Positions 11,763-32,466 of a stretch of 64,000 nt of DNA are shown here, one piece after another (the stretch's first letter is position 1; each line of letters opens with the position of its first letter). The position numbers and the translations under genes are program-made. Below the pieces are notes generated by a model, which worked only from the letters and a program-made list of their open reading frames with translations, searched no databases and was not told the origin of the DNA. The DNA is from Candidatus Eiseniibacteriota bacterium (GTDB lineage: Bacteria; Eisenbacteria; RBG-16-71-46), in contig JANYBS010000005.1 of NCBI GenBank assembly GCA_025360715.1, positions 5,571 to 69,570 on the forward strand, in the 5' to 3' direction.

Positions 11763-11989
11763 AGACGCGACGCGCCGTAGGGGTGATCCTGCTCGCCGCT
11801 GCTGCCGCCAGCCTGAGCAGTTGTGCGGCGATGAGCGTCAAGCCGTGGGACCGCGATCTTCTCGCCCAGCCCAAGATGCGGTTCCAGCCGCTGCCCATGG
11901 TGCACGCGGTCGACAATCATATCTATTTCTCCAAAGAAGGCTCGATGGGCGGCGATGACGTGAGCGGCGGAGGCTGCGGATGCAACTGA
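11759..11989 (+). CDS. DUF4266 family small lipoprotein, copy 1
   Basis: 76 aa. The lipobox is LSSC and the characteristic C-terminus reads ...GGDDVSGGGCGCN. It lies between the thioredoxin and the DUF3570 genes, as is typical for this family. Confidence 0.7.
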   Translation: MKTRRAVGVILLAAAAASLSSCAAMSVKPWDRDLLAQPKMRFQPLPMVHAVDNHIYFSKEGSMGGDDVSGGGCGCN

Positions 11990-13269
11990 GCGAGCCGACC
12001 ACTGCGGCGGCAGCCGATACTCGCGTCGCGCGCCGCCTGCGCACCGCTGCCGCGGTGCTGTTCGCGAGCCTGCCGGCGATCGCGCGAGCGGCCGATAGCG
12101 GCACGGCGAGCGATGCACCCGCGAACCAGCTCGACTTCTCGGGCTTGCTCTACGGGGAAGCCTCGCGCGTCGCGGTGATCGAACCCATCGCCAAGCTCAC
12201 TCACCGCTTCGCCAACGGCCAGTCGCTCTCGGGCCAGCTCGGCATCGACGGCATCACGGGCGCATCGCCCACCGGTGCCCTGCCGTCGGGCAAGGTGACC
12301 ACGGTCACGAGCGCTTCGGGCAACGTGACCACGTCAGCGGCCGACCAGATCCCCACGACCAAGTTCAATGACATACGCGCCTCGTTCGATGCGGACTACG
12401 CCGTGCCCGTGGGCACGCTGTTCAAGTCCACACTGGGCGGGCACTTCTCGCGCGAGAAGGACTACCAATCCACGGGCGCCAACGCACAATTCGCGCTCGA
12501 CGTACTGCAACGCCTTTCGACCATCACCGTGGGCGGCGGCTTCAATCACGACACGAGCTTCCCCACGGGCGGCACGCACGCGCCGTTCACAGACGGCACC
12601 ACCGTTCTCACGACCGACCCGCAGGGCAAGGACGTGACCACATGGATGGTCGGCCTCTCGCGTGTCGTCACGCGCCGGCTGCTCGTGGGCGCCAACGTGT
12701 CGGGCACGAACGAGAAGGGCTACCTGACCGAGCCTTACAAGGTGCTCAGTGTGGTGGACACCGACGGCTACCCGGTGAGCACGCTCACCGAGAAGCGTCC
12801 CGACACCCGGACGCGCAAGAGCGTGCTGGGCAGCGCGGTCTACCATCTCGCCGACGACGTGTTATATCTGTCGTACCGTCGCTACTGGGACGACTGGGAC
12901 ATCCGCTCGCATACGATCGACGTGCGCTACCGTCACGAGCTTGGCGCCGACACATGGTGGGAGCCGCACGTGCGCTACTACGCTCAATCCGAAGCCCGGT
13001 TCCATACCTGGGGATTCGCGCAAGGGGCCGCGTTGCCGCAGTACGCGACGAGCGACTACCGCTTGGGCAAGCTCAACACGCTCACTCTGGGCCTCATGTA
13101 TGGCTTCCATCTCCTGGACTACCCGGGCACATTCACGATCCGCGGCGAGTACATGTCACAGTTCGGCGAGACCCATCCCGAAGGCGCCGTCGGTGTGCAG
13201 AAGAGCTACAGCCTCATGCCGGGACTCAGTATCGGCTCGCTCACCGCGGGCTACTCGATCGGCTGGTGA
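11980..13269 (+). CDS. DUF3570 family exported protein (predicted outer-membrane beta-barrel-like), copy 1
   Basis: 429 aa. The start codon lies inside the DUF4266 stop region (10-nt overlap). The signal region contains RRLRTAAAVLFASLPAIARA. The sequence is beta-rich and ends ...AGYSIGW. It contains DGITGAS and shares motifs with the ORF at 28496..29641. Confidence 0.7.
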   Translation: MQLSEPTTAAAADTRVARRLRTAAAVLFASLPAIARAADSGTASDAPANQLDFSGLLYGEASRVAVIEPIAKLTHRFANGQSLSGQLGIDGITGASPTGALPSGKVTTVTSASGNVTTSAADQIPTTKFNDIRASFDADYAVPVGTLFKSTLGGHFSREKDYQSTGANAQFALDVLQRLSTITVGGGFNHDTSFPTGGTHAPFTDGTTVLTTDPQGKDVTTWMVGLSRVVTRRLLVGANVSGTNEKGYLTEPYKVLSVVDTDGYPVSTLTEKRPDTRTRKSVLGSAVYHLADDVLYLSYRRYWDDWDIRSHTIDVRYRHELGADTWWEPHVRYYAQSEARFHTWGFAQGAALPQYATSDYRLGKLNTLTLGLMYGFHLLDYPGTFTIRGEYMSQFGETHPEGAVGVQKSYSLMPGLSIGSLTAGYSIGW

Positions 13270-13270
13270 G

Positions 13271-14170
13271 GTGACGCCCGAGGCGGCGCCGCGAGTGACG
13301 CGTGAAGGTGCGTTGCTCGTGGCGCGATTCATGGCCATGGCGAGTCCGTGCGAGGTGCTCCTGGAAACGCGCGATGATGCGGCCGGCGAGCGGGCATTGC
13401 TCGCCGCAGCACAGGAAGCCACGCGCATCGAGCACAAATACAGCCGCTATCGCAGCGACAGTGTCACGAACGCGGTCCAGCAGACTTCGGGCACCGATGT
13501 GGAAGTGGACGAGGAGACCTCGGGACTGCTCGACTTCGCCGCCCAGGCCCACGACGTTTCAGGCGGGCGCTTCGACCTCACGACCGGCGCGCTGCGCCGC
13601 TGTTGGACATTCGACGGTCGCCAGGTCACGCCTGACGTTGACGCCATCCGTGATGCACTCACACACGTCGGTTGGTCACGCGTGCAGTGGCGCCGCCCGC
13701 GACTGACACTGCCGGCGGGCATGGAACTCGACTTCGGCGGCATCGGCAAGGAGTACGCCGTGGACCGCGTTGCGGCGATCATGACCGCGCATGTCGCGGC
13801 GCCGTGCCTGGTGAACTTCGGAGGTGACCTGTTCGCTTCGGGGCCGCGCGGCGACGGTGTGCCGTGGAGCATTGGCATCGAGGATCCGGGCGCTCCCACG
13901 TGCATACTCACGCAGGAACTGGCGCTGACACGCGGCGGCGTCGCCACGAGCGGGGACGCGCGCCGCTTCGCGATGGTCGAAGGCCGGCGTCTGGGCCACG
14001 TCCTCGATCCGCGCACGGGCTGGCCGGTCACTGGCGCGCCGCGCTCGGTGACGGTCGTGGCGGCCACGTGCCTGGAGGCCGGAACGTTGGCCACGATCGC
14101 GCTGCTGCATGGCTCCGGCGCCCGCGAGTTCCTGCAGGCGCAGGCCGCGACCTTCACCTTGTTGGACTGA
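13271..14170 (+). CDS. apbE: FAD:protein FMN transferase (ApbE family), copy 1
   Basis: GTG at 13271, 1 nt after the DUF3570-1 stop. The product contains the ApbE core (R-F-MAMAS..., DFGGIGKEYAVDR, GGDLF, DPRTGWPV). About 300 aa, with no obvious signal peptide. Confidence 0.8.
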   Translation: MTPEAAPRVTREGALLVARFMAMASPCEVLLETRDDAAGERALLAAAQEATRIEHKYSRYRSDSVTNAVQQTSGTDVEVDEETSGLLDFAAQAHDVSGGRFDLTTGALRRCWTFDGRQVTPDVDAIRDALTHVGWSRVQWRRPRLTLPAGMELDFGGIGKEYAVDRVAAIMTAHVAAPCLVNFGGDLFASGPRGDGVPWSIGIEDPGAPTCILTQELALTRGGVATSGDARRFAMVEGRRLGHVLDPRTGWPVTGAPRSVTVVAATCLEAGTLATIALLHGSGAREFLQAQAATFTLLD

Positions 14171-14176
14171 CTCCTT

Positions 14177-15373
14177 CTACTGCGGCGGCGTGAAGACGAA
14201 CGGCGCCTGGAAGGCGGTCGCGCCGCCGCGGATGACCGGGAAGCGCCATTCGCGGATCTGCCCCAGCGCGCAATCCGCCAGACGGCTCGAGCCGAGCGTG
14301 TTGACCACCACATGCGCTTCGTCGACTTCGCCGCTCGCGGCGACCACCAGCGAGATCACCAGTTTGCCGCGAAGCGAAGGTTCGCGCTTGAGTTCGTTGC
14401 CGTAGCAGTACTGGATACCGGCGGAATACTTCTGGATCACGGCCAGCAACGATGCGTTGCTGCGGTAGACGCCGGGAGGCGCCACACCGCCGCTGCCACC
14501 GCCGTCACCGGGGCCGACGCCCGAGCCGTGGCCGGTGCCGACGCCGCCACCGCTGCCACCGCCAGAGCCGCCACCCGATCCACTACCGATGCCGTCACCC
14601 ACGCCGTCGCCGATCCCACCGCCCAAACCGCCGCCCGAACCGGCGCTGTGTCCGCCGCGGCCCGGATGCAGGTCCGCAAGCGCCACGAGCGTGCCCACCA
14701 CGACACTGTTGCCAAGGTCCGCGCCGGAGCCGCCACCGACTCGGCCCACGCCGCCGCCACCGAGCGCGTCCTCGCCGCGCGCGACGCGCAGCGAGCGGCC
14801 ACCGCCAGCGCGCAGGGGAGCGGCGCCCTCCGAACTGCTCGCGCTGCCGAGCGAAGCCGTCAGGCCATCGAGCGCGCTACTCACCGCGCGGCCGCCTCGT
14901 GAGCCACTGCCACCACCCAGCGCGTCAGCCAGTTCGGCCTGCGCGCGCGCGCGGCCACTGCCGCCATCGCCGCCCGCGGCATTCAGGTGCACGGGGCCGC
15001 TAGTTCCCGGGCCCGGTGCCAGATGTTCGGGCGCGATGACGCGCGCCACCTTCGAGAGACCGTCACCGCCGCCGCCACCACCGCCGCCGCCGGGCGTGTG
15101 TGTGGGGTCTGCCGCACCAGGTGCCACGACCGGAACGCTCACCGCATGCGTCTGCACGGCGAATTGCGGCGGCAACACCAAGCGCGCGTAGCGCGTCTCC
15201 GGCGCTGCGGCCACGGGCGCAGGCGCAAGGACGGTCGCCGGCATCAATCGTACGCCGACCATGAACACGGCGCCTGCCAGCGCCGTGCCCATGAGGCAGC
15301 GCCGGAACAGGGCGTCTCGCGGATCGAACATCGGGCGCTGGTACGCCGGTGCGGTCATGATATTCACGCGCAT
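14177..15373 (-). CDS. TonB-family / AgmX-PglI-like energy-transducer protein with long Gly-rich linker
   Basis: 398 aa. An N-terminal TM anchor (LMGTALAGAVFMVGV) is followed by Pro-rich and poly-Gly/Ser low-complexity segments. The C-terminal domain (YRSNASLLAVIQKYSAGIQYCYGNELKREPSLRGKLVISLVVAASGEV...) is TonB-C-like. It is the last gene of the ExbB-ExbD-ExbD operon. Confidence 0.65.
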   Translation of the reverse strand: MRVNIMTAPAYQRPMFDPRDALFRRCLMGTALAGAVFMVGVRLMPATVLAPAPVAAAPETRYARLVLPPQFAVQTHAVSVPVVAPGAADPTHTPGGGGGGGGGDGLSKVARVIAPEHLAPGPGTSGPVHLNAAGGDGGSGRARAQAELADALGGGSGSRGGRAVSSALDGLTASLGSASSSEGAAPLRAGGGRSLRVARGEDALGGGGVGRVGGGSGADLGNSVVVGTLVALADLHPGRGGHSAGSGGGLGGGIGDGVGDGIGSGSGGGSGGGSGGGVGTGHGSGVGPGDGGGSGGVAPPGVYRSNASLLAVIQKYSAGIQYCYGNELKREPSLRGKLVISLVVAASGEVDEAHVVVNTLGSSRLADCALGQIREWRFPVIRGGATAFQAPFVFTPPQ

Positions 15374-15377
15374 GGGT

Positions 15378-15860
15378 TCAGGCCTTCTTGAGTACGGCCA
15401 GCGCGATGTCGGGATAGCCGCTCTGATTCACGGTGTACATGACCTTCTGCAGTAAGCGGAACTCGATGTCCTGGTCGCCCTGGATCGTCACGAGGTGCTT
15501 ACGCATCGCACTCGTGTCGCGTGAAGCCGGAGCCTCGCGGCGCAGACGATCCGCCAACGGCGCGATCAACATCTGGTCGTCTGCGAGCGCCGCGGAAACG
15601 GTCGTGATGCGGTCCCCGCCGATCAGGATCGTGCCCTTGTCGATGGCGATCACGGTCGAGTTCTGCATCGCGGCCTCAGCTGTGGACTTGGGCAACGATA
15701 CGCTGGGCGGCGGCGTCGTCGCATCGCCACCTGTCACGAAACTCTTGAGCACGAAGAACAACAGCGTCGTGAGCACGTCCATCATCGACGTGAGGGAGAT
15801 GCCGGTCTCGGCGTGGCGCTGCCCCGCCCAGCGCTTGCGGCGGCCCCTTGTGCGGCGCAT
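15378..15860 (-). CDS. ExbD/TolR family biopolymer transport protein (paralog 1)
   Basis: 160 aa from ATG 15860 (MRRTRGRRKRWAGQ...ISLTSMMDVLTTLLFFVL). It has the single-TM ExbD/TolR topology and a periplasmic domain. Confidence 0.8.
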   Translation of the reverse strand: MRRTRGRRKRWAGQRHAETGISLTSMMDVLTTLLFFVLKSFVTGGDATTPPPSVSLPKSTAEAAMQNSTVIAIDKGTILIGGDRITTVSAALADDQMLIAPLADRLRREAPASRDTSAMRKHLVTIQGDQDIEFRLLQKVMYTVNQSGYPDIALAVLKKA

Positions 15861-15861
15861 G

Positions 15862-16341
15862 TCAGGCTCCCTTCGTGGTCGCGCCTTCGAGCGCGGTGTC
15901 GGTGAGCCCGGCCGCACGGGCCAGGTCCATGAGCGTGACGATCTCCTGATAGCGCGTGCCCGGTTCCGCGAGGATGCGGATCGCCTTGGTGCCCGGATGC
16001 GCCGCCGTGACACTGGCAAGTGCACGCGTGAGCGCCGCGGCCGTGGGCGCCGTCGGCGCGCCGTTCTCGTTCTGCCGGGTGACCGCGATCGCCGCCACAT
16101 CGCGGCCCTCGATCACATACGCCGAACCCTGCACACGCAGCACCAGGTCCAGCCCGGGAACACTCGCCACAGCGGAGTGAGCAGCGGGCGGCGGCGTCAT
16201 CTCGATCGCGCGGATCTCCATGAAGACCGCCGATAAGAGCAGCATCGGGATCAGCACGATGATCACGTTCATGAGCGGCCGCAACTCGAGCTGTGCCTCG
16301 GTGGATTGCTGCAACGCGCCCTTGCGGCGCATCCGCGACAT
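15862..16341 (-). CDS. ExbD/TolR family biopolymer transport protein (paralog 2)
   Basis: 159 aa (MSRMRRKGALQQSTEAQLELRPLMNVIIVLIPMLLL...). It is a second ExbD paralog, 1 nt upstream of paralog 1. Confidence 0.8.
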   Translation of the reverse strand: MSRMRRKGALQQSTEAQLELRPLMNVIIVLIPMLLLSAVFMEIRAIEMTPPPAAHSAVASVPGLDLVLRVQGSAYVIEGRDVAAIAVTRQNENGAPTAPTAAALTRALASVTAAHPGTKAIRILAEPGTRYQEIVTLMDLARAAGLTDTALEGATTKGA

Positions 16342-16344
16342 GAC

Positions 16345-17067
16345 TTATTGCCCCGCCGCGATCGCCGGACGTGCCTGCACCGGTGCGGCCACCGGACGAG
16401 CCTGCGGCATCGCCACGACGCCCGCCGGGCGGTGCGCCTCGCGCGACTTCGTCAAAGCATGCGTCAGCCGGATGCTGGCTTCGTCGACCTGCTCGGCGAT
16501 GCCCTCGATCAGGCCCAGCAGATAGCCGTGGATCACCAGCGTCGGGATCGCGATCACGAGGCCGAATGCCGTGGCATTGAGTGCGGTCGAGATGCCGGCT
16601 GCCAGCAAGGAGCTGCGCTGGGAAGGATCGGCCGCGCCGACAGCGGTGAACGCCTGGATGAGTCCCGCGATGGTGCCCAGCAGTCCCAGAAGCGTGCAGA
16701 CGTTCGCCAGCACGTTCAGGTACGCCAACCGGCGCGAGAGCGGAGGCATCGCCAGCGTCGCCGCGTCGTCCGCCGCCATCTGCAAGTGGTTCGTGTCGGT
16801 ACCGTTCACGTCCAGGATCGCCTGCGCGATCATGGCGACCGGCGCGGTGCTCATGTGGCTCACCTGACGCGCACCCTGCACGTCTCCGGAGCCGATTCGG
16901 CGCGTGACGTCTTCGATCATCTTGCGGCTATCGAGCCGGGCAGCCTTGGAGATCACGAGGAAGCGCTCGACCACGATCGCGGCGATGACGATCGCCGTGG
17001 CGAGGATGAGATACATGAATACGCCGCCCTGCTTGAAGAAAGCGGCGATGGTCGAGAACTCGTTCAT
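16345..17067 (-). CDS. MotA/TolQ/ExbB proton-channel protein
   Basis: 240 aa (MNEFSTIAAFFKQGGVFMYLIL...) with three TM segments and the conserved ExbB/TolQ C-terminal helices. Confidence 0.85.
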   Translation of the reverse strand: MNEFSTIAAFFKQGGVFMYLILATAIVIAAIVVERFLVISKAARLDSRKMIEDVTRRIGSGDVQGARQVSHMSTAPVAMIAQAILDVNGTDTNHLQMAADDAATLAMPPLSRRLAYLNVLANVCTLLGLLGTIAGLIQAFTAVGAADPSQRSSLLAAGISTALNATAFGLVIAIPTLVIHGYLLGLIEGIAEQVDEASIRLTHALTKSREAHRPAGVVAMPQARPVAAPVQARPAIAAGQ

Positions 17068-17405
17068 CGTCGTAGCTCCTTGTCGTGCGCCAGCCGCACG
17101 CGGTTCACGAGGACCAGTGCCGGGAGCCGGGTGCTATCGGCGAGCTCCTGCGCGGTCTTCAGGTAGCGCCGATCCTGGAAGTCCAGGAACCGCCGCTGGT
17201 CCCGCGCGGTGATGAACAACACCTGCGGGGTGGGGATCTCACCTTCGATATGGATGTCCGACAGTTGCCGAGGAGCGTGTGACGCCGGCGCCGCTACAGC
17301 AGGGGCGGCCACCGATGCGCGGCGGGCGCGATGCGCGCGGGCGCTCCAAGTCGTCGCGGGCAGCAGCAGGGCCACCATCGTCACGGTGAGCACTGCGCGC
17401 TTCAC
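17064..17405 (-). CDS. Small exported hypothetical protein (signal peptide), co-operonic with exbB
   Basis: 113 aa with a signal peptide MKRAVLTVTMVALLLPATTWSARA. Its stop overlaps the exbB start (ATGA). No recognisable domain. Confidence 0.4.
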   Translation of the reverse strand: MKRAVLTVTMVALLLPATTWSARAHRARRASVAAPAVAAPASHAPRQLSDIHIEGEIPTPQVLFITARDQRRFLDFQDRRYLKTAQELADSTRLPALVLVNRVRLAHDKELRR

Positions 17406-18394
17406 CGTGCACCCGGCTTGTCGTCATCCGCGTGCGCCAGCGGCGTCGTGAACGCGCCGGCGAGCGAGTCGGGATCCTCGCTTGCACGTGCACGGTATGC
17501 GGCGAACCAGCGCGCGGCAGCCGCGTCGTCGAGCAGGTAGAAGCCGCTCAGGATCGTCATATTGTAGTAGGGACCGGGCAACGCCGCGTCGCGGGCGATC
17601 GCCGCCTCGAAGGCCTTCTGGGCGCCGGTCACATCGCCGGCGCGCAGCCGCAGGATACCCACGTTGTTGAGCGTCGCCGCGTTGTGCCCGGCCTGCTTCG
17701 CCGAACTCGCGAGCAGCTCTGCCGGTGACGGTGAGGCATCGCGCGCGCCCAGGTACACCCGCACCGGCGCCGCTGCTGCGTCATCGCCGGCCGCCGCGAG
17801 TGCGGCACGCGCCTCGCGCGGATGGCCCAATGCGTCGTGGTGCAACGCCAGCGCCGCGAGCAACCCTGCGCGCTCGTGCGGCGAGAAGGCCTCCGGGTGC
17901 TCGTTCACCACCGCCAGGACCGGTAGCGCCTCCGCGGATCGCCCTTCGGCAAGCAGCCAGCTCGAGAGCAGCGCCAGTGAGGGCGCGTGTTGCGGATCAC
18001 GCGTGATCGCCTCACGCACGGCGCTCTCGGCGGAGCCAAGGGAATCGGCCGCGCGCAGCGCGAGCGCCGCCCGGTAAGCCGGCGCGGGATCTTGAGGATG
18101 CGCCAGCATCGCGGCGCGTACCCGGGCCAGCGGAGACTCGGCAGGCGTGTCGCCGGCTGGTGCCACCGCGGCTGATGCCGGGACCGCCGCCTTCGCGTTG
18201 CGGCCGGAGCGCACCACGCCCGCGTGCGACCGCACGTCGGCAACAGCTCCGTGGCGGGCGAACAGGCGCATCCCACAGCCGCCCGACAGCACGGCCGACG
18301 CCAAGGTTGCACCTAGCAATGCACGCGATGCGAAACGCAGTGCGGGCCGGGAAGCCCGCATGAAGGAGCAAGCGGGCAGCAGGTGCTGGGTCAT
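17402..18394 (-). CDS. TPR-repeat lipoprotein
   Basis: Lipobox ...AVLSGGC near the N-terminus, followed by Ala-rich TPR-like helical repeats. Its start overlaps the stop of the giant upstream ORF (ATGA). Confidence 0.5.
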   Translation of the reverse strand: MTQHLLPACSFMRASRPALRFASRALLGATLASAVLSGGCGMRLFARHGAVADVRSHAGVVRSGRNAKAAVPASAAVAPAGDTPAESPLARVRAAMLAHPQDPAPAYRAALALRAADSLGSAESAVREAITRDPQHAPSLALLSSWLLAEGRSAEALPVLAVVNEHPEAFSPHERAGLLAALALHHDALGHPREARAALAAAGDDAAAAPVRVYLGARDASPSPAELLASSAKQAGHNAATLNNVGILRLRAGDVTGAQKAFEAAIARDAALPGPYYNMTILSGFYLLDDAAAARWFAAYRARASEDPDSLAGAFTTPLAHADDDKPGAR

Positions 18395-21300
18395 CGCGAG
18401 CCTCCTTCCTTCGGGTGTGTGCCACGCGGGGCGGCTTGACCGCTGTGCGCCTTGGGATTGTCCCGTTCGCCGCTTCGCGATTCGTCCTGCATCCGCGCCT
18501 GGGCATCTTCATCAACGAGCGGCATGTCCACTTCCGGATGGAATTGGAAGCGATCGGCGAGCCGCTCCCACAGCAAGCTCTGGGCCTGCGCGGTCCACGC
18601 GTCATCCGCGGCGTGTGCGCTGCGGACTTGCCGCAACAACTGCGTGAGAACGCCCACACCTCGGTCGCTGAAGACCTGGGCGCGCGAGCGCAGCACGTCG
18701 TCGTAGGCCGCGCGATCTGCGCCCGTAAGGTCAGCGGGGCGCTCGGCGTGCTGCAGGGCGTCGGCGAACGCGAGCAGCGATTGCCCCATGCGCAATGCCG
18801 AGGCATGTGCCCACAGCGGATCGCCCGAATCGACGCCGCGGCGATAGCGCGCCAGAAGGGTGTCGAGCAGCGCCTTCTTGACCGCGATGCTCTTGGGCAG
18901 CGGCTGCTTGAGCGCCACCGCATCGAACGAGCGCCGCACGTCTTCGCCCTGCGTGAATCGAAGCTGTGCCACGAGCGAGTGGGAGACCAGGTCGGGGTGC
19001 TTCGTCCCCAGTAGCAGATACGCCGCCAGGTGCGAAGGCGCTCCCGTCTGCCGGGTGCGCGCCGCCGGGAGCAAGGCAGAAAGTGGATGCTGTGCGTCGA
19101 CGGCGTCCAACTCGCGTTTCGCCAGCGCCGCCAGGATCGCCATCACCCCGGGCACGTCGTCGGGGTGCATGCGCATATAGGCGACCCGAAGCGAGTCCGC
19201 GCGGGCTGGAGCGCCCGCGCCGGCAAACAGCTCCGCCGCTTTGAGCTCGGCCGCGCCGGCGCCATCGTCCTTCGGGAAACCTGCGGCAAAGCGAAGGTAA
19301 GCATCAGCCGAAGCGCTGCTGCGGCCTGCGGCCTCGAGCGTCTGCGCGACCTGCACCTGCGCGTCGCGCGCATAGCCGCTGCGCGCATAGTGGTCCGTCA
19401 CGACGGCAAGCGCGCGCAAGGCTTCTCCGCGATCCCCAGCGCGCAGCCACGCAAGGCTCGCACGATATTGGGCCCGCGCTGCAAGGGAGTCCGCCGGGTA
19501 GCGTTGCGCCATCTGCTCGAATGCCTTCGCCATCGCGCGATGCGCCGAGGTATCGGTAGCGGCAGCCGCCTCGGCGGCGCGATAGGCGCACACCGGCATC
19601 GCCGCAAGTGCTTGACGCGCGAGCGTGTCGCGATGGGCACGGACCGCCAGGCGGGCGGCGGCGCCGAACGCAACCTCGGCTAGCGCGAAGTCTGCTTGCG
19701 CCACGAACACCTGGGCGCGCTGCGAGGCCGCCAGCGGCGCCCGCGCATCGTTGCTGTCGCGCGCCACGAACCGGGCCAGGTCCGCGCTTGCACGGTCCTG
19801 CCACCCATGGGCCAGCGCCAACTGGCCTTCGCGCCAGAGGATCTCGGGGCTATGCACGTGCGTGGGGAAGCGCTGCACGAATGCATCGCCCTCGTGCAGA
19901 ACGGCCTGCGCAAGACTGTCGGGACCACGTGCCGCGGCCGCGTTCGCATGCCGAGCGTGTTCGTATGCGGCGTCGACCAACGCGACGCGTTGCCAGAGCG
20001 CGACGACAGCGATGCTGTCGGCGCCGCCGCGAGCCGCGTCGGCGTAGTGCGCCATGGCTTCGTCCGTACGGCCCAGTCGCGCGCTTGCTTCACCGGCGGC
20101 CAAAGCGAATCGCGCAGCCTCCGGATCCTTCGCCCACTGCGCGAGCAACGCCAGGTCCAATTGCAGTGCCTGCGCCCACGCCTGCGGATCTCCGCTCGTG
20201 CGCGCGCGCTCATGCGCGAGCGCCGAAGCCTGCCGTGTCGCGTCATGCGCGAATGCATCGCCCGCCGCACGCAGCGAGTCGTTCGTCTGCGAACGGGCCC
20301 ACGCGCTCCCCGCGGCAAAACGCGGCGCCAGTGTAACGCGCGCCCCCTGCGCGTCGGCGGCACGATCCGCGCGCTCCCAGGTCGCCAACTCGCGCTGCGC
20401 GCTCAGCAGCGCCTGCGGTGTCTGGGGGTAACGTGCCAGGTAAGCTTCATCGGCCTGCGTCGCCTGGAGCAGCGCGCCGTGCGTGCGCAGGTGCTGCGCC
20501 AACGAAAGCAGCATCGGCGCCGCATACGGACGCTCGCCGAGCGTATCGAAGTACGCCACGAAGGCCGGCGCGCCACCCGCTCCGGCCAGCGCGATCACGA
20601 GGTAGTCGCCCGACTCCGTCCGTAAGTCCACTTGGGGGCGTTCTGCCGTGGTCTCGTAGCGGTCCAGCACGCTGCGGAACGCATCGGCGGCAGACAAGAA
20701 GCGGTCCTCGTTGAAGTGCGACCAGCCGCGTTTGTAGTCCGCGATCGCCGCCAGCGTCGGGTCACCACCGGGCGACGCGGTCGCGTGCGCATAGGCTTGA
20801 GCGGCCTCCACGTACCGCTTCGCTTGGAAACGCGCATCACCCATGCGCACCCATGCCTCGGCGCAGTAGGGCGAGCCGGGATGCTCACTCACGAGCGTGC
20901 GGAAGTCATGCTCGAACGCCGGATCGCCCGCGTCGGCCAGGATCATGCCAGCGTCGAAGAGCACCGCGTCGCGGTGCGGGAACGCCGGGTCGTTGGTGAG
21001 GATCTGCCGGTAGAGCGCCAAGGCACGGTCCTGTGCCAGCACGGGCACCGGGGCGCCGGGCTTCTCATGACGCAGGTACGCGGCCATCTGGTCGCGGAAC
21101 TGCTGGCGGGCGGCGAGCATCTCGAGGTCGGCCAGGCGGAAGCGCATCTCCCCGCGCACGGGAGAATCGGGGTAGTGGGCGAGGAACGCCCGCATGCGCG
21201 GCATCGCGACGGCGCGCAGCGCCGCAGCGCCTTGATCGTCCAAGGCGTCGTCCTGCTCCGTGCTCGCGGTTCGCGCGGTCGCTACACGAGCCGGCGCGAA

Positions 21301-23184
21301 TGCCGTGTCGCGGGCGGCCAGGCGCACGCTGCGCGCATACGCGGACGCGGCCATACCGTAGTCGATACGTTCGCGTTCGCTCTCGAGCGTGGCGCGCGCC
21401 TGATCGACGGCGTCTCGCACGACCGCTTCACGCGTGTGCGCGGCCGCGGCCACGAGCGAGTCGGCGAGGCGATCGGCGCGAACGAGCTGCGCCTGCAACA
21501 CGCGCCACTCGTCGCTGGTTCCGGCAGCTAACCGCTCCGCCTCGATGCCGCGGCGCAAGCGGTCACTCCACGCGAGCAGTTCGGCCGCGGTGCTGTCCTG
21601 TGCAACGGTGCGTCCCAGCAGGCCCGGCCGCCAACGATCGGCGTAGGAGCGAGCCAGCAGTTCGGGAGCCTCGCGCGCAAGCGTGCGGTTCAGCCTTTCG
21701 CAGAGCGAGTCGAGCGCCTGCTCCTGAGCCAGCACCGCATCCGGCCGGGGCATGCCCTGGGGCGCCCAACGAAGCTTCGCGCCCGCGGTGCCGCCCAGTT
21801 CGATGCGGCGCATCGCCGCCGCCCACGCGGCCTGAGCGCGCGCCTGAGCCAGCATCTGCTCGGTGCGCGCCAGCAACTGTTGGGTCGCTGCGTCGCGCAC
21901 ACCGCGCAGATGCGCGTCGATGGTAGCGAGCGAGGCTTCGAGCGAGTCCAGCACTGCGCGCTGGCGTTCCAGCGTCGCACGCCGCGCGCCAAGTCCCGCG
22001 AGTCCGCGCGAAAGGTAGATCTGCAGATCCGCCAGGCGGGCTTGCTCGCGCTGCATCGCGCTACGGGTAGCGCCAGCCGCGGCGAACGCAGCGTCGGCAA
22101 GGCTCTCGGCCTGTGTGACGCGCTGCCACGCGGCGGCATCGGGAGGCGGGACCAGCGCGCCATCATCCCTACCGAAGCGATCGTCCCGGCGAATCGCGCG
22201 CGGCGCCGCGGCACTCACCACGATCGCAACCAGCGAATCCCCCTGCACACGCACCGGGTCCTCGGCCAGCGTCCAGGCGTTCCGGATCGCGGCGCGCTCG
22301 CGCCACGCGTCCCAGAGCGTATCGGCGTAGGCGTGCGCGCGCAGGGCCTCGATCCGGTTGGCATCGGCTGCGTGCAGGGAATCCCCACGCGCATAGAGCG
22401 CTTCGGCGTCCTCCCAATGACCCATCTCGAGTGCCTGCGACGCCGCACCGGCCAAAGCCGCGCGCCGAAGGGCGCCGGACGGCGATCGCGCGGCCGTCTG
22501 TTCGAAGGTCACCTGCGCAGCAGCATGGTCGCCACGTTCCGCCGCCCGCTGCGCCTGCCAGAGCCCTGCGCGCAGAGCGGCCTGGGTACCTGCTGGGATC
22601 TGTCGCAGCCATCGCGCGACATCGTCTGCACTCGACGTGGCGCGAGTCGCAAGGCGCAGCGCCGCCGCACCGGCACGCTCACGTCCCGCGGGCCTCAGTG
22701 TGTCAGTGGTCACGATTGCCGCGAGCGCTGCGGGATCATCCTGTGCAGAGCCGGCTAACACACCGGCGGCGCTTGTCGCAGGCATGCCGGCCCGAAGCCG
22801 CGCCTCCGCATCGATCCAGCGCGTCCACACGCTCGCACCACGCCCGATCCGCGCAGACGCGACCGCCGCCGCGATGCTCCGGAATGCCTGCTCATCGCCC
22901 AGCTCCAGCGCCGAATGCGCCGCGAGCAGCGCCGCCCGCTGGGCGTTGTCGCTCGCCGGCAGCGCCTGCCAATCCAGGCCGCGCATCGCCGCCTGCACGC
23001 CGCGCAGATCATGCGCACGTTCGCGCGCGATCGCCCGGCCCAGTGCCAGCGTCACGGCATCGGTCGGCACAACGACCGAGGCGACCTTCGCGGGCGCGCC
23101 TTGCGCGGTGCCCCGGCTTGCGGTGCTCAGCAGCGCCGCCAGCAGGCACGCCCGGACCCCGCGTTGCACTGCAGAGCGTCGCAT
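18391..23184 (-). CDS. Very large (~1598 aa) exported TPR-like repeat protein
   Basis: ATG at 23184 gives a signal peptide MRRSAVQRGVRACLLAALLSTASRGTAQG, 2 nt after the upstream gene's stop. The body is Ala/Arg/Leu-rich helical-repeat sequence with no frame breaks over 4.8 kb. The co-directional gene string supports the minus strand over the three long plus-strand antisense ORFs. Confidence 0.55.
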   Translation of the reverse strand: MRRSAVQRGVRACLLAALLSTASRGTAQGAPAKVASVVVPTDAVTLALGRAIARERAHDLRGVQAAMRGLDWQALPASDNAQRAALLAAHSALELGDEQAFRSIAAAVASARIGRGASVWTRWIDAEARLRAGMPATSAAGVLAGSAQDDPAALAAIVTTDTLRPAGRERAGAAALRLATRATSSADDVARWLRQIPAGTQAALRAGLWQAQRAAERGDHAAAQVTFEQTAARSPSGALRRAALAGAASQALEMGHWEDAEALYARGDSLHAADANRIEALRAHAYADTLWDAWRERAAIRNAWTLAEDPVRVQGDSLVAIVVSAAAPRAIRRDDRFGRDDGALVPPPDAAAWQRVTQAESLADAAFAAAGATRSAMQREQARLADLQIYLSRGLAGLGARRATLERQRAVLDSLEASLATIDAHLRGVRDAATQQLLARTEQMLAQARAQAAWAAAMRRIELGGTAGAKLRWAPQGMPRPDAVLAQEQALDSLCERLNRTLAREAPELLARSYADRWRPGLLGRTVAQDSTAAELLAWSDRLRRGIEAERLAAGTSDEWRVLQAQLVRADRLADSLVAAAAHTREAVVRDAVDQARATLESERERIDYGMAASAYARSVRLAARDTAFAPARVATARTASTEQDDALDDQGAAALRAVAMPRMRAFLAHYPDSPVRGEMRFRLADLEMLAARQQFRDQMAAYLRHEKPGAPVPVLAQDRALALYRQILTNDPAFPHRDAVLFDAGMILADAGDPAFEHDFRTLVSEHPGSPYCAEAWVRMGDARFQAKRYVEAAQAYAHATASPGGDPTLAAIADYKRGWSHFNEDRFLSAADAFRSVLDRYETTAERPQVDLRTESGDYLVIALAGAGGAPAFVAYFDTLGERPYAAPMLLSLAQHLRTHGALLQATQADEAYLARYPQTPQALLSAQRELATWERADRAADAQGARVTLAPRFAAGSAWARSQTNDSLRAAGDAFAHDATRQASALAHERARTSGDPQAWAQALQLDLALLAQWAKDPEAARFALAAGEASARLGRTDEAMAHYADAARGGADSIAVVALWQRVALVDAAYEHARHANAAAARGPDSLAQAVLHEGDAFVQRFPTHVHSPEILWREGQLALAHGWQDRASADLARFVARDSNDARAPLAASQRAQVFVAQADFALAEVAFGAAARLAVRAHRDTLARQALAAMPVCAYRAAEAAAATDTSAHRAMAKAFEQMAQRYPADSLAARAQYRASLAWLRAGDRGEALRALAVVTDHYARSGYARDAQVQVAQTLEAAGRSSASADAYLRFAAGFPKDDGAGAAELKAAELFAGAGAPARADSLRVAYMRMHPDDVPGVMAILAALAKRELDAVDAQHPLSALLPAARTRQTGAPSHLAAYLLLGTKHPDLVSHSLVAQLRFTQGEDVRRSFDAVALKQPLPKSIAVKKALLDTLLARYRRGVDSGDPLWAHASALRMGQSLLAFADALQHAERPADLTGADRAAYDDVLRSRAQVFSDRGVGVLTQLLRQVRSAHAADDAWTAQAQSLLWERLADRFQFHPEVDMPLVDEDAQARMQDESRSGERDNPKAHSGQAAPRGTHPKEGGSR

Positions 23185-23186
23185 CG

Positions 23187-24044
23187 TCACTCGTTCGTCC
23201 CCGCCGCGACGGCCGAGCCCTGCCGCGTCCACGTGGTCGCCGCGATGCTGCTTGCGCCATGCTCGGCGTTCAGATTCGTCAGGTCGAGCCGCACGCACAG
23301 CAACTGGTCTCGTGCGGGCTCCACGGTCAGGTAGCCGCAGTCATGGGCGGCCCACAAGGTGCCGGCCAGGCCGACTTCAATCAGTTGCGGGCGTGGTTCG
23401 ATCAGGCCATGGAAGAGTTCCAGGATCCCGCCGGCGCGCAACGTGGCGCGCGCAGCATCGTCAAGCGGCACAGTAAGAGTGTCGCCGTCTTCCAGGTGAA
23501 GCGTGATGTCGCCGACCGCGTTCGCTCCCGGATCGCCGCTCACGACCACGAGCATCGCCGTCTGTTGATGCTGGTCGAAGTCGGCCTGCAAGGCGCCCAG
23601 CCCGGCGCGTTGCGCATCCAGCATGCGGCCCATCTGATCGAGCTGCGCTTCGAGAAGCCCAAGGTCGGTGACGCTACCGAGCAGTCCGCGCTGCTGACGC
23701 GATGCCTCGGCGCGCGTGAGCGAGTCACTCGCGTTGGCCACGCCGGCCAGCAGGTGCGCGTAGTCAAGATAGCGTGGATCCATTGCCGCCGCATCCTGCG
23801 ACACATCCAAGGCGCGCTGCTGGACGCGATCCAAGCGGCCACGGATGAAGTCGCGGTTCGCGCGGAAGAACCGCAGTGTCTCGATCCGCTCATGCTCCGG
23901 CTTGCGGCGTTGGAGCCGAACCGTTTCAGCCGCCAACGGCGCCGTGGGCGCTTCCTGTGCGCGCACGGAGTCCGTCAGGAGCACGCTGCACGCGAGCATC
24001 GCCAGTATGGGCCGCGGCCCTGCGAGCCAAGCAAGGAACCGCAT
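23187..24044 (-). CDS. Exported hypothetical protein
   Basis: Signal peptide MRFLAWLAGPRPILAMLACSVLLTDSVRAQ from ATG 24044. 286 aa with a coiled-coil-like middle region (LDAQRAGLGALQADFDQHQQ). It is tightly coupled to both neighbours. Confidence 0.45.
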   Translation of the reverse strand: MRFLAWLAGPRPILAMLACSVLLTDSVRAQEAPTAPLAAETVRLQRRKPEHERIETLRFFRANRDFIRGRLDRVQQRALDVSQDAAAMDPRYLDYAHLLAGVANASDSLTRAEASRQQRGLLGSVTDLGLLEAQLDQMGRMLDAQRAGLGALQADFDQHQQTAMLVVVSGDPGANAVGDITLHLEDGDTLTVPLDDAARATLRAGGILELFHGLIEPRPQLIEVGLAGTLWAAHDCGYLTVEPARDQLLCVRLDLTNLNAEHGASSIAATTWTRQGSAVAAGTNE

Positions 24045-24046
24045 GA

Positions 24047-24625
24047 TCAGCCCCTCCATGAGCGGCGCACCGCTCCGGTGATCGCATCGACCGTCACGAA
24101 CAGCGAGGCAGCACCCGGCGCGTGGTAGACGACAGTCCACGAGGTGGGATCCGGGTCGGCATCCCCGAACGCGCCGCGAGCCAGCAACATGGTCGCCACC
24201 TCGGCGGTCGCATGGCGGCCGAAGACACGCGCGGCTTCAGCGTCGGCAGCGCGGCGGGCGGCATCACTGTCGATCCAGCCTGCGTGCACCGGAGGAGCGG
24301 GCATGTGCCCCCCTAGGTCCTGTGCGGTCACGATGCGACCGTCACGAACGGAATAGGCGCGCGCACGGTCGAGGCTGGGGGAGTAGAACAGGTAGCCCCA
24401 GCGACCCGCGGCGCCATGTGCGTCGACCGGTTCGTCATTCTCCAGGTACACGAGAAACCCATCGGCGGCCCACGTCTGCGCCGCAGCGGTGGCCAGGCTC
24501 AGGCCGTCATGCGCGGCCACGCCCTGCCGGTCGCGCGCGTACGCGTTGGCCGCCAAGAGGAGCGCGCCGGTGAGCAGTGCGCCGGTGAGCAGCGCGATGC
24601 CGAGTGAGAAACGATTGGGATGCAT
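24047..24625 (-). CDS. Exported hypothetical protein
   Basis: 192 aa with signal peptide MHPNRFSLGIALLTGALLTGALLLAANAYA. No recognisable domain. Confidence 0.45.
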   Translation of the reverse strand: MHPNRFSLGIALLTGALLTGALLLAANAYARDRQGVAAHDGLSLATAAAQTWAADGFLVYLENDEPVDAHGAAGRWGYLFYSPSLDRARAYSVRDGRIVTAQDLGGHMPAPPVHAGWIDSDAARRAADAEAARVFGRHATAEVATMLLARGAFGDADPDPTSWTVVYHAPGAASLFVTVDAITGAVRRSWRG

Positions 24626-24633
24626 GGCAGCTC

Positions 24634-25509
24634 CTAGAAGAGGATCTCGCTACCCAGCGTGAATTCGATATTGTTCGCGGCGAGATGACTGGAGTCGTTG
24701 CGGGGGCGGAAGTGATAGTCACGCACCTCCCAACGCATGGCCGCGCGCTTCGACAAGAAGAGCTTGGTGCCCGCTCCGAAGTTCACGCTGGGCTCGCTGC
24801 GACCCAGCATGACAGCCGAACCCACACCACCGCCCACATACGGCACCATCTGCCGGCCGGGCATGAGCTCCCATGTCACGTTCATCTGGTAGAAGAGCAT
24901 CGAGAACTTCTCGGCCTCGAGCGACAACCCGAAGAGCGACTCGACGATCTCGGCGGGTCGATGCACCCGCGTCCACGAGACACCGGCCTCGGCCACGATG
25001 CGATCGAACACGTAGTAGCCCACACGGCCACCCACGACCGCCGAATTCGATTTGCGATCGAACGCGTAGGCACCGGAATAGCCGCTGACCACGTAGCTAC
25101 CCGTGCGCGTGTAGACCTTGGGGTTCGGACGGAACTGCAGGCCCGACAAGTCGTCCTGCACGCGGCAGAGTGACGCATGCACCCAGCCGGTCTCGGTCTC
25201 GGACAGCTTGACCCCATACCACTCGTCACTCTTGGCGATCACCGGAAAGGACAGCTTCGCGGGATAGACGCCCACGATGGCGTACGCATCGCCGGGCCCC
25301 GAACGCACGACGTTCCCGGACTTCCCCGTGAGTTCGATGCGCTTCTGCCCGACCTGCATGGGGGCGTTCGGGAAGTCGCGCTGCTTGGGCGCCGCTGAAT
25401 CGGGGGCGACGGCGGCGGCCGTTGGCGTCAGAGCCGGCGCTTCGTCTGCACGCGTCGCACCGGCGTGCAACAGAACGCCCAACAACGCGCCACCCGTGAC
25501 CGCTCGCAT
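24634..25509 (-). CDS. Bacterial SH3-domain + outer-membrane beta-barrel (OmpA-like TM domain) protein
   Basis: ATG at 25509 gives the signal peptide MRAVTGGALLGVLLHAGATRA. The SH3b-like segment is YAIVGVYPAKLSFPVIAKSDEWYGVKLSETETGWVHASL. It is followed by alternating beta-strands and ends ...FTLGSEILF with a terminal aromatic. Confidence 0.5.
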   Translation of the reverse strand: MRAVTGGALLGVLLHAGATRADEAPALTPTAAAVAPDSAAPKQRDFPNAPMQVGQKRIELTGKSGNVVRSGPGDAYAIVGVYPAKLSFPVIAKSDEWYGVKLSETETGWVHASLCRVQDDLSGLQFRPNPKVYTRTGSYVVSGYSGAYAFDRKSNSAVVGGRVGYYVFDRIVAEAGVSWTRVHRPAEIVESLFGLSLEAEKFSMLFYQMNVTWELMPGRQMVPYVGGGVGSAVMLGRSEPSVNFGAGTKLFLSKRAAMRWEVRDYHFRPRNDSSHLAANNIEFTLGSEILF

Positions 25510-26188: not shown

Positions 26189-26826
26189 CAGCGAGATTCC
26201 TGTGCGGCCATCGCCGGTGCGGGCACGGGGTTCCTGAACTCCATGCCCACGGGCAGGATCTGCATCTCGTTCGAGCGGAAGGGCGTCACGACGATCGTAT
26301 CGCCCTGGATGCGCTCGATCTTCTGACCCGAGCCCATGTAGCAAAGCAGGAACACGCCGCCATGCCCCGCGCCTGTGGAGTCGAGCACGGTGGGGATGTG
26401 GCCCTGAAAGGTGAATGTTAGCGGCTGGATCAGATGGTCCCAGCCCGTGACGGGGATCAACGCCCGGCCCAGCGTCGTGGAGTGGGCGAGCAGTGAATCG
26501 ATGTCGGTCGCCATGCGCAGGCGTTGAGCGTCGGGCGCCACCTCCACCGTGCCGGGGTCGATCGTGGCGCTCGCGCGCAGTTCCGCGACGGCGTATCCAG
26601 TGACGATGTGCCGGTAGGTGATGGTGGCCTGCACCGAGACCGATTCCTGCGCGCCCAACGTGACCGTCTCGAAAGGTGTGAGGTTCGAGTGCAGCAGGTC
26701 GACGCGCGTCCAACGATCCTCGAGCTTGGGCGCATCGAAGCACCCGCTGAGCAGCGCGGACGTGGCCATGCCCATGACGGCAAACCTGACCATGGCGGCC
26801 GGCCGGCGCAGGTGTGCGGCGTTCAT
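26188..26826 (-). CDS. Lipoprotein, hypothetical
   Basis: ATG at 26826, with a lipobox LLSGC after MNAAHLRRPAAMVRFAVMGMATSA. About 212 aa. Confidence 0.45.
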   Translation of the reverse strand: MNAAHLRRPAAMVRFAVMGMATSALLSGCFDAPKLEDRWTRVDLLHSNLTPFETVTLGAQESVSVQATITYRHIVTGYAVAELRASATIDPGTVEVAPDAQRLRMATDIDSLLAHSTTLGRALIPVTGWDHLIQPLTFTFQGHIPTVLDSTGAGHGGVFLLCYMGSGQKIERIQGDTIVVTPFRSNEMQILPVGMEFRNPVPAPAMAAQESR

Positions 26827-28466
26827 CGCACCACCGCCACGCGGCGCGTCTCGTGCGTGGCACCGGCGTCGAGACGATAGAAGTAGACCCCGGCCTTCAC
26901 GTCGTGGCCGCGATCGTCCGTGCCGTCCCACGCGACGTCCTGAAGACCGGCGGTAGCCAGCGGCGCGAACGTGCGCACGCGCCGGCCGTTGGTATCGTAG
27001 AGCGCGAGTTCCGGCCTGCTGCGCAGGTTCGCGGGCAGCACGAACGAGATACGCGTCACGGGCTTGGCCGGGTTGGGCGAGTTGCCGAGCAGTTGTGCGC
27101 GCGTCGCGCTCACGCCGCTGCCGGTGGCACGGAAGGCCGCCTGTGCCACGTCGTCGGCGCCGTTGTGGTACGCCGAGCGGGCGTTCACGCCGAGCACGAG
27201 GTCGCTTCTACCCTGGAAGCCGCTCAGGTCGTCGGCGTTGAGCGCGATGGTGCGCGCGCCGGCGTCCAGCACGCCCAGGTCGCGCGTGGTGAGCGTGCGA
27301 CCACTCGCCGCATCGCGCACCGTGAGCGTGACGGCAGCTCGGTCGGTGAGAAGGAAGCTGGCGACCGGGGCGGCCGTGGCATCCACCGCGAGATTCGCGA
27401 CGCCGGCGCCAAGGTTCCAGAGCCGCATCCCGTTCGCGCCGTCCCAATCCTCCATCGTGAGAGCGCCCGCCTCCGCCGTGCGCGCCTGGGTGCCATCGCG
27501 GTGGTCATGCACACTGGCGAACGCCACGTGCACGTTGCGCGGGTGCTCCAAGCCGGAGCTCATCTGCGCCACCGGCTCAAGAGCCGCGTTGAACTTGGCG
27601 AGCACGCCTTGCTGCGGCGCCGCGGCGTAGACGTTGCCCCACGCATCGGTCGACAGCGACGTCACGGCATCGGCTCCCGAGGGCGCGGCTCCCGCCCACC
27701 GCAGGCTGCCGCCTTGCATCTGCAGTCGGACGATGCGGCGATTGTGGGCATCCGCCACATAGACGGTATTCGTGTTGGCACCGTTCGCGCGCCCTACGGT
27801 GATCGCCATCGGGCCCGCGAAGGCGCCGTCGCCATTGCCAAGGCCGCCGATCGCGCCCAACGGCCGGGCGCCGGCCGCGCCCAGTGCGAACGCGGCCACC
27901 TGGTTGCGGCCCGTGTCGGCCACGTAGAGCAGGTCGTCCTCCGGGTGGAACGGCGTGCCGTTGTCCGAGACGGCCACGTCGTACGGCGCGTGCAGGCCGC
28001 CGATCACATAGAGAGGTTTCAGGGTCAGGTGCCCGTACTCGGGCACGGCCTGGAGCACGACGATGCGGTCATTGCCGCGGTCGGCCACGTAGACACGGTC
28101 GTTCTCATCCACCGCCATGCCGCGCGGCTCGGAGAGCGCACCCGCAGTCGTGCCCGAACCATCGAAAGCCGAGAGCGTCTGGCCCGGTTCGCTGCACACC
28201 AACCGGTTCCATTGCGGATCGCTGGCGATCTGGAAGCGCCGCGTCTCCACGTAGGGAAACACGTCGTAGATATCGGTGTCGGTGATCAGGACCGTGGCGT
28301 AGGGCTGCGAGAACACATCGCGCCCGAGTTGCGCGCGGGCGACCGAGCGATCGAGCGCGTCCACGCCCAGCGCCGGCAGGAGCGGCGCGTGCGTGAACGT
28401 CGCCGCGTGGGCCGACGCTGCAGCCGCCATCGTGAGGCCCAGAGTCAGAAGCGTGCGCTTGCGCAT
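26823..28466 (-). CDS. NHL-repeat beta-propeller protein with FlgD-Ig / T9SS-like C-terminal sorting domain
   Basis: ATG at 28466 is preceded by AAAGGAG. The signal peptide is MRKRTLLTLGLTMAAAASAHA. NHL-like blades include PRGMAVDENDRVYVADRGNDRIVVL and TVYVADAHNRRIVRL. The C-terminus NSPNPAKPVTRISFVLPA...LALYDTNGRRVRTF...WDGTDDRGHDVKAGVYFYRL matches the FlgD-Ig-like / T9SS C-terminal-domain consensus. Confidence 0.65.
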   Translation of the reverse strand: MRKRTLLTLGLTMAAAASAHAATFTHAPLLPALGVDALDRSVARAQLGRDVFSQPYATVLITDTDIYDVFPYVETRRFQIASDPQWNRLVCSEPGQTLSAFDGSGTTAGALSEPRGMAVDENDRVYVADRGNDRIVVLQAVPEYGHLTLKPLYVIGGLHAPYDVAVSDNGTPFHPEDDLLYVADTGRNQVAAFALGAAGARPLGAIGGLGNGDGAFAGPMAITVGRANGANTNTVYVADAHNRRIVRLQMQGGSLRWAGAAPSGADAVTSLSTDAWGNVYAAAPQQGVLAKFNAALEPVAQMSSGLEHPRNVHVAFASVHDHRDGTQARTAEAGALTMEDWDGANGMRLWNLGAGVANLAVDATAAPVASFLLTDRAAVTLTVRDAASGRTLTTRDLGVLDAGARTIALNADDLSGFQGRSDLVLGVNARSAYHNGADDVAQAAFRATGSGVSATRAQLLGNSPNPAKPVTRISFVLPANLRSRPELALYDTNGRRVRTFAPLATAGLQDVAWDGTDDRGHDVKAGVYFYRLDAGATHETRRVAVVR

Positions 28467-28495
28467 GGGAGACTCCTTTCCGCGACCTGCGAGCT

Positions 28496-32431: not shown

Positions 32432-32466
32432 GGTGGTGATCCGAACCTCCCGCGACGGTCCGCCGT

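Follow-up and report, generated by a model that had tools for sequence, protein, structure and literature searches.

What does a motor module made of one ExbB/TolQ-like gene, two different ExbD/TolR-like genes, and a TonB-like gene do in a Candidatus Eiseniibacteriota bacterium? Such a module occupies positions 14177 to 17067 (minus strand) of the window, by which we mean the whole 64,000-nucleotide (nt) stretch of DNA that was analyzed, positions 5,571 to 69,570 of contig JANYBS010000005.1 (G+C content, ∼68%); all coordinates given here are window positions. A first-pass annotation of this DNA had pointed to the four genes, all of which we found on the minus strand at the positions given, and had offered two interpretations: an exbB-exbD-exbD-tonB operon of the kind found in the Fibrobacteres-Chlorobi-Bacteroidetes (FCB) group or a relative of the AglR-AglQ-AglS motor of myxobacteria. 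The Agl-like interpretation is the better of the two. We consider it probable, with some reservation, that these four genes supply the inner-membrane end of a trans-envelope machine, encoded by ten genes and of the Agl-Glt “core complex” type. Most likely, this machine is a proton-driven trans-envelope force transducer and not a Ton uptake system.

A conserved ten-gene operon

The motor module closes, at its 3′ end, an operon of ten genes (14177 to 25509, minus strand), which we number g1 to g10 in the direction of transcription. With intergenic gaps of −4 to +8 nt, g1 to g10 form a single, tightly packed operon: 2 nt separate the end of g2 from the start of g3 and the end of g3 from the start of g4, the start of g5 overlaps the stop of g4 by 4 nt, g6 overlaps g5 and g7 by 4 nt each, and g7, g8, and g9 are adjacent, with 1 to 3 nt between them. 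The true start of g9 is an internal ATG at 15860, one base past the stop of g8; the list of open reading frames gave 16100. A scan for promoters and terminators gave no signal over the shuffle expectation, and a local search found no further Ton/Tol motor genes in the 64-kb window. The first-pass annotation had followed the operon upstream into a tetratricopeptide repeat (TPR) lipoprotein and a large TPR protein. Both are present, but the 113-amino-acid g6 had been overlooked, as had three more genes that carry the operon on to 25509.

A scan of one genome per species, with a narrow alignment as the query, returned 80 loci, all of them in FCB lineages. The closest loci (72 to 80% identity in the C-terminal domain of g10) are almost all labeled Candidatus Eisenbacteria, and more distant ones are labeled Krumholzibacteriota and Latescibacterota; a few third-party labels of metagenome-assembled genomes (MAGs) look unreliable. 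When the most distant ortholog (P0233) served as the query, only Latescibacterota and Krumholzibacteria relatives were returned. Of the 80 loci, most of those on long-enough contigs keep the order g1 to g10, as tabulated from tblastn matches, and precomputed gene calls with Pfam annotation place all ten genes in the same order in an Eisenbacteria chromosome and in another MAG. This recurrence of gene order in relatives argues that the cluster is a conserved unit and not a chance juxtaposition. Some genomes carry two copies of it.

The part of the cluster that varies is the motor. Between g6 and g10, relatives show three arrangements: a motor of the window type, no motor, or a different motor. 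Loci without ExbB/ExbD genes (L018, L026, L028, L030, L032, L033, L042, L046, and L049) run from the large TPR gene through the small TPR gene and the small protein directly to the TonB-like gene, and in L067, L069, L071, and perhaps L058, the motor site holds a different ExbB/ExbD set that stands far nearer to the Escherichia coli proteins, with 44 to 50% identity to the TolQ/ExbB core. In Myxococcus, one AglRQS motor serves both the Glt and the Nfs transducers, which are encoded elsewhere. The motor-less relatives parallel this reliance of Glt and Nfs on AglRQS from elsewhere, and we take them as support for a machine of the Agl-Glt type.

The TonB-like protein and the Agl-Glt core complex

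The last gene of the operon, g10 (14177 to 15373, minus strand), encodes a TonB-like protein of 398 amino acids. Its cytoplasmic N terminus spans ∼20 residues. In the AlphaFold2 (AF2) model, the protein has a confidently predicted membrane helix (residues 21 to 43), a further helix at residues 138 to 152, a periplasmic linker that is mostly disordered, and a folded C-terminal domain (residues 305 to 398; pLDDT [predicted local distance difference test] score, >90). Among the more than 1,200 homologs found in metagenomes, the conserved features are an N-terminal DxLFxRCL motif, a QLPxRFARLILE motif past the transmembrane helix, and two invariant Cys residues in the C-terminal domain.

The identity of this C-terminal domain carries much of the argument. 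It passes the NCBIfam model of the AgmX/PglI C-terminal domain (NF033768) with 80.5 bits against a cutoff of 40, and it stays below threshold for both Pfam TonB_C (PF03544; 21.9 bits, gathering score of 24.6) and TIGR01352 (18.3 bits, cutoff of 27.1). The first-pass annotation had proposed this very comparison of AgmX/PglI with TonB_C, and its outcome favors the Agl/Glt side. As modeled, the domain has the TonB fold. The best PDB matches in Foldseek are the TonB domains 6sly, 7zc8, and 9dc4 (E values of 4e-4 to 1e-2), with TolA domains ranked lower, and a profile of the domain searched against the PDB recovered TonB domains at E values of ∼1e-3 and no TolA domain.

The linker is Gly rich rather than Pro rich, as had been noted at first pass: it contains 31% Gly overall (56% over residues 237 to 300, with a G9 run) and 7% Pro. 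The trait varies among relatives. Close orthologs of g10 range from 7 to 36% Gly in the linker, and distant ones, with 40 to 50% identity in the C-terminal domain, have a classical Pro-rich linker. The Gly-rich linker is thus a lineage-specific, variable expansion.

The second line of evidence is gene order. An Agl-Glt core complex, encoded in a single region, has been reported from several Gammaproteobacteria, one betaproteobacterium (Methylibium), Geobacter, and Fibrobacter succinogenes; the study describes it as ancestral to the machines for gliding and spore-coat formation in myxobacteria and gives no known function for it (Luciano 2011, PLoS Genet 7:e1002268). Among the carriers in Table S3 of that study are Methylibium, Cellvibrio, Hahella, Marinobacter, Saccharophagus, Shewanella, and Teredinibacter. 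The table gives gltC (550 to 746 amino acids), gltD (930 to 1292), gltE (160 to 263), one skipped locus tag, aglR (205 to 272), aglQ (169 to 188), aglS (162 to 185), and gltG (308 to 371, without FHA domains). Most of the listed clusters show the skip between gltE and aglR, among them those of Methylibium, Cellvibrio, Marinobacter, Saccharophagus, and Shewanella, and the Fibrobacter entry comprises gltC, gltD, aglR, aglS, and gltG only (Luciano 2011).

From the large TPR gene onward, the operon in the window is collinear with these clusters, and its genes are of similar sizes. By position, the counterparts are g4 for gltD (18391 to 23184; 1597 amino acids), g5 for gltE (17402 to 18394; 330), g6 for the extra gene (17064 to 17405; 113), g7 for aglR (16345 to 17067; 240), g8 for aglQ (15862 to 16341; 159), g9 for aglS (15378 to 15860; 160), and g10 for gltG, all on the minus strand. 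One TolQ/ExbB gene is followed by two distinct TolR/ExbD genes; a short TonB-like protein that has an AgmX/PglI-type domain and no FHA domain comes directly after the motor; and a small additional gene, g6, occupies the place between the gltE and aglR positions. Here, as in the published cases, the genes form a single operon that is duplicated in some genomes, and an FCB member, Fibrobacter, is already a known carrier. For the large and small TPR genes upstream of the motor, the fit is one of position, TPR content, and the lipobox of g5, not of aligned sequence. The passed AgmX/PglI model and this collinearity together support the Agl-like interpretation given at first pass.

The operon also departs from the published core complexes. 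The large TPR protein has ∼1600 amino acids here versus 930 to 1290 there; three further conserved genes stand upstream, encoding an SH3 plus outer membrane barrel protein and two secreted proteins; in one TolR paralog, Asn takes the place of the membrane Asp; the TonB-like protein has its Gly-rich linker; and the carriers are Eisenbacteria, Krumholzibacteriota, and Latescibacterota. Read as a core complex, the cluster is an expanded form of it in these three phyla, one not described for them in the literature that we searched.

The TPR proteins deserve closer description. In g4, a periplasmic protein, the TPR matches lie in the middle third, with none within the first 600 residues. The protein scores 84.5 bits on the NCBIfam model tol_pal_ybgF (cutoff of 90.1), a score summed over eight TPR stretches, the best of which is residues 1252 to 1351, and its sole PDB sequence match is CpoB (6g5s; E value, 0.003). 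Its orthologs are mostly 1450 to 1700 amino acids long, and only 5 of 38 have a lipobox, so g4 is mostly not a lipoprotein. A fusion of GltC and GltD was considered as the origin of g4; the lengths add up, and no clearly split orthologs were seen, which leaves the idea unsupported. The smaller g5 has weak Pfam matches to TPR_12, TPR_2, and TPR_19. Judged from a lipobox-like motif kept in 40 of 46 orthologs, it is a conserved lipoprotein. In Myxococcus, residue ranges of both GltE and GltD are numbered from Cys1 (PMC11761067), which we read as a sign that both are mature lipoproteins.

Between the TPR genes and the motor, g6 encodes a secreted protein of 113 amino acids without a family match in Pfam or NCBIfam. 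A strand-like motif, R.L..I.IEGEI.VPQVLFIT.R, is kept over 60 loci in three phyla, and g6 may pair a strand with the C-terminal domain of the TonB-like protein. It sits where gltF sits in Myxococcus. In an AlphaFold-based model of the Myxococcus machine, a strand of GltF pairs with the C-terminal domain of GltG, and GltF bridges to GltC and GltD (PMC11761067); a likeness of GltF to a TonB box has also been proposed (PMC9389320). By its position and size, g6 would be the natural candidate for the GltF role.

At the other end of the operon, g1 (24634 to 25509, minus strand; secreted, with ∼291 amino acids from the ATG at 25509) joins an SH3b domain to an outer membrane beta-barrel. The trimmed protein matches Pfam OMP_b-brl (30.0 bits, cutoff of 28.7) and SH3_3 (28.1 bits, cutoff of 27), and the barrel passes NCBIfam TIGR04565, OMP_myx_plus (67.3 bits, cutoff of 60). 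Wherever a related locus extends that far, g1 opens the conserved cluster. The two genes that follow, g2 (24047 to 24625; 192 amino acids) and g3 (23187 to 24044; 285 amino acids), both on the minus strand, encode proteins with signal-peptide-like N termini and are syntenic in relatives, g2 with 42 to 68% identity. Apart from a weak PepSY match (E value, 0.1), searches of Pfam, NCBIfam, and the PDB gave no match for g2; for g3, no family, PDB, or TPR match was found.

Compared with the Agl-Glt and Agl-Nfs (spore-coat assembly) machines of Myxococcus xanthus, the operon shares a TolQR-like motor, a transducer with an AgmX/PglI domain, a TPR scaffold, and outer membrane barrels. Motor and transducer are modular in both, and the motor-less relatives, with g4-g5-g6-g10, reproduce the order gltD-gltE-gltF-gltG. 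Unlike the Myxococcus machines, it has no GltI, GltJ, GltH, GltK, or CglB-type genes, and g10 has no FHA domains and stays far below the cutoff of the GltG equivalog model. As candidates for GltG or GltJ, we also considered long metagenomic proteins with AgmX/PglI domains. None reaches the equivalog cutoff; they are kinase, metallo-beta-lactamase, and OmpA fusions. A tblastn search of plasmids with g10, meant to find an annotated core complex from Proteobacteria, yielded no match. The M. xanthus aglT quantitative PCR primer (Table S4 of Luciano 2011) matched metagenome contigs twice, both times by chance: one match was to an actinobacterial-like coiled-coil protein and the other to a protein resembling methionyl-tRNA synthetase, neither being Myxococcus DNA.

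The core-complex assignment, which we hold with moderate confidence, is built on a single curated domain model together with the fold and a detailed match in gene order to a published table, not on a tree. Several observations count against it. No separate GltC-like TPR gene of 550 to 750 amino acids stands upstream of g4. The likeness of g4, g5, g7, g8, and g9 to GltD, GltE, and AglRQS is one of position, size, and domain class, not of alignment or tree. The GltG equivalog model (NF033760) gives g10 54 bits, in the C-terminal part only, against a cutoff of 650. The AgmX/PglI domain itself is widespread and promiscuous, with 10750 cluster representatives at E values of ≤1e-3, so that the domain by itself is no proof of Glt membership. 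Finally, the CpoB-like module of g4 and the TolQ-like g7 would also fit a Tol-like system.

As a separate observation on this domain, other metagenomic proteins (for example, P0201, P0243, and P0227) carry from one to six copies of the AgmX/PglI C-terminal domain, and it occurs in fusions with Ser/Thr kinases, a subclass B1 metallo-beta-lactamase, and OmpA-like domains.

The motor and the rival explanations

The channel subunit g7 belongs to the TolQ/ExbB family (Pfam MotA_ExbB, 84.1 bits; E value, 8.8e-24), and the two stator subunits match Pfam ExbD at 48.5 bits (g8) and 49 bits (g9). No equivalog model for ExbB, ExbD, TolQ, or TolR comes near its cutoff in NCBIfam. For g7, the scores are 53 of 221 bits for TolQ, its best, 41.8 of 206 for ExbB, and 44 of 135 for ExbB2; for the ExbD paralogs, the ExbD models give 16 to 19 bits (cutoffs of 153 to 216) and the TolR model gives 22 bits (cutoff of 127), TolR being the best or sole NCBIfam match of both g8 and g9. 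By PDB sequence search, g7 is equidistant from ExbB and TolQ (E value, ∼2e-8). Its AF2 model (pLDDT score, 78.5) comes nearest to TolQ of the E. coli TolQRA complexes (template modeling score, ∼0.7; 22% identity), followed by ExbB and then MotA. In a neighbor-joining tree, a rough one without support values or Agl references, g7 groups with its orthologs in a separate clade that includes neither E. coli TolQ and ExbB nor the second motor type of the relatives.

The essential membrane Asp of ExbD and TolR is not present in both paralogs. At the column of E. coli TolR D23 and ExbD D25, g8 has Asn, as do its counterparts in 52 of 55 related loci, and g9 has Asp, as in all 55 related loci with a residue there. 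Kept to this degree, the split makes the stator pair appear obligatorily asymmetric. The Asp is reported for AglQ and AglS alike in M. xanthus (review PMC9389320), and the Asp/Asn pair is therefore a difference from the model system. In all 56 close orthologs of g7, T, M, or Q stands in place of the Glu of the third transmembrane helix (TM3; ExbB E176, TolQ E173), and Thr132, Asp147, Asn164, and Thr166 are invariant. A stator pair with a natural Asp/Asn asymmetry is relevant to the working of 5:2 proton motors.

The closeness of g7 to TolQ, in its structural model and in its best NCBIfam match, and the TolR matches of both ExbD paralogs raise the question of whether the operon is this lineage's counterpart of Tol-Pal, serving envelope integrity and division, with g10 as TolA, g4 as coordinator, and g1 as a peptidoglycan-binding anchor that replaces Pal. 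The near-threshold YbgF/CpoB score of g4 and its lone PDB match to CpoB point the same way, as do the union of an outer membrane barrel with an SH3b-type domain in g1 and the wide distribution of the cluster over three phyla. Nevertheless, we judge this explanation unlikely. The operon holds no TolB or Pal homolog, and the one TolB-like match in the window, a PD40 repeat, is generic and belongs to an unrelated gene; a pair of distinct TolR paralogs is foreign to Tol-Pal; and the TolQ and TolR scores are far from their cutoffs. The C-terminal domain of g10 is nearer to TonB than to TolA by fold and by sequence, and the YbgF score, summed as it is over eight stretches, may reflect generic TPR similarity. 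Two copies in some genomes and the existence of motor-less copies also speak against it. A Tol-Pal-like role is, even so, harder to dismiss than a plain Ton system.

Such a Ton system, divergent and otherwise ordinary, would use ExbB, two ExbD proteins, and TonB to energize TonB-dependent receptors, with the TPR genes as accessories, and we regard it as quite improbable. It would share with the operon the MotA/TolQ/ExbB and ExbD/TolR families, a single-pass transducer of TonB fold whose nearest solved structures are TonB C-terminal domains, and the gene order of exbB-exbD-exbD-tonB operons in the FCB group; many g10 orthologs are, moreover, tagged TonB_C in precomputed Pfam annotation. Of the FCB-type interpretation given at first pass, only that gene order held up. 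All curated Ton models are below threshold here: TonB_C and TIGR01352 fail where the AgmX/PglI model passes at twice its cutoff, and the ExbB/ExbD equivalogs give 16 to 44 bits against cutoffs of 135 to 216. The membrane helix of TonB has the His of an SxxxH motif; no His is present in the predicted membrane helix of g10 (residues 21 to 43). One ExbD, further, lacks the essential Asp. The partners conserved in three phyla comprise TPR proteins, one small protein that is secreted, and a non-receptor barrel, and some relatives keep the TonB-like gene with the TPR genes while the motor genes of the cluster are missing. Such “TonB family” proteins in metagenomes should probably not be tallied as nutrient-uptake TonB.

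A receptor-like outer membrane protein does occur in the window and would suit the Ton explanation. The first-pass annotation had raised a link between the motor and this protein, placed there at 35089 to 37923. It lies ∼20 kb away on the opposite strand and is absent from the neighborhood of the cluster in relatives, whose conserved genes include no receptor, and because of this lack of synteny we reject the link. The gene (34951 to 37923, plus strand) encodes a 990-amino-acid protein with a CarboxypepD_reg domain and an OMP_b-brl_3 barrel, and no Plug domain was found at E values of ≤0.001. We take it to resemble the receptor-like type of outer membrane protein that includes Myxococcus Oar.

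A true gliding machine, by which Eisenbacteria would glide like Myxococcus, shares the motor and transducer architecture of Agl-Glt but is very unlikely, because the Myxococcales/Bdellovibrionales-specific genes gltA, gltB, gltF, gltH, gltI, gltJ, and gltK were not detected, g10 has neither the FHA domains of GltG nor an adequate score on its equivalog model, and the core complex by itself is held unlikely to drive motility (Luciano 2011, PLoS Genet 7:e1002268).

Possible mechanism and neighboring genes

For a machine of the Agl-Glt core-complex type, the analogies with ExbBD-TonB, TolQRA, and Agl-Glt suggest a 5:2 stoichiometry as well as the protein contacts, the direction of force, and the physiological role. 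Five copies of g7 would form the proton channel around a g8/g9 heterodimer in which g9 contributes the protonatable Asp and g8 contributes Asn. Proton flow would turn or flex the motor unit, and the work would pass to the membrane helix of g10, whose long, flexible, Gly-rich linker would cross the peptidoglycan. On the far side, the TonB-fold domain would dock, probably by strand pairing, on g6 through its strand motif and on the TPR scaffold of g4 and g5, which in turn would join the SH3-bearing outer membrane barrel g1. The output would be mechanical work on a component of the outer membrane or the surface and not import through TonB-dependent receptors. That work might consist of tethering or organizing the outer membrane or, on the model of Agl-Nfs and Agl-Glt in Myxococcus, of moving a polymer or cargo at the surface.

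A more far-reaching proposal is tentative and, in our view, rather doubtful: that the three phyla share an undescribed, expanded version of the ancestral Agl-Glt machine, with an obligatorily asymmetric stator, a channel without the TM3 Glu, and an exchangeable motor module. If it were true, the cluster would offer a natural comparative system for the function of the core complex and for a 5:2 motor that runs on a single protonatable site. On the core-complex interpretation itself, a well-conserved, expanded version in three more phyla of the FCB group shows that the system is no proteobacterial oddity, and it adds candidate partners, namely, an outer membrane end made up of SH3 and barrel and a small adaptor that carries the conserved strand motif.

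Outside the operon, DUF3570 genes flank the cluster, one on each side (287.9 and 109.4 bits), and the downstream one overlaps a gene of the ApbE flavin-transferase family; the coordinates of these DUF3570 and ApbE genes are 11980 to 13269 (plus strand), 28496 to 29974 (minus strand), and 12941 to 14170 (plus strand). Two further genes lie upstream of the cluster on the same strand. One (30461 to 32470, minus strand) encodes a protein in which PD40 repeats and a CXXCH motif accompany a hydrazine-synthase-alpha middle domain, and the other (26823 to 28499, minus strand) encodes a protein with NHL repeats and a FlgD-Ig domain.

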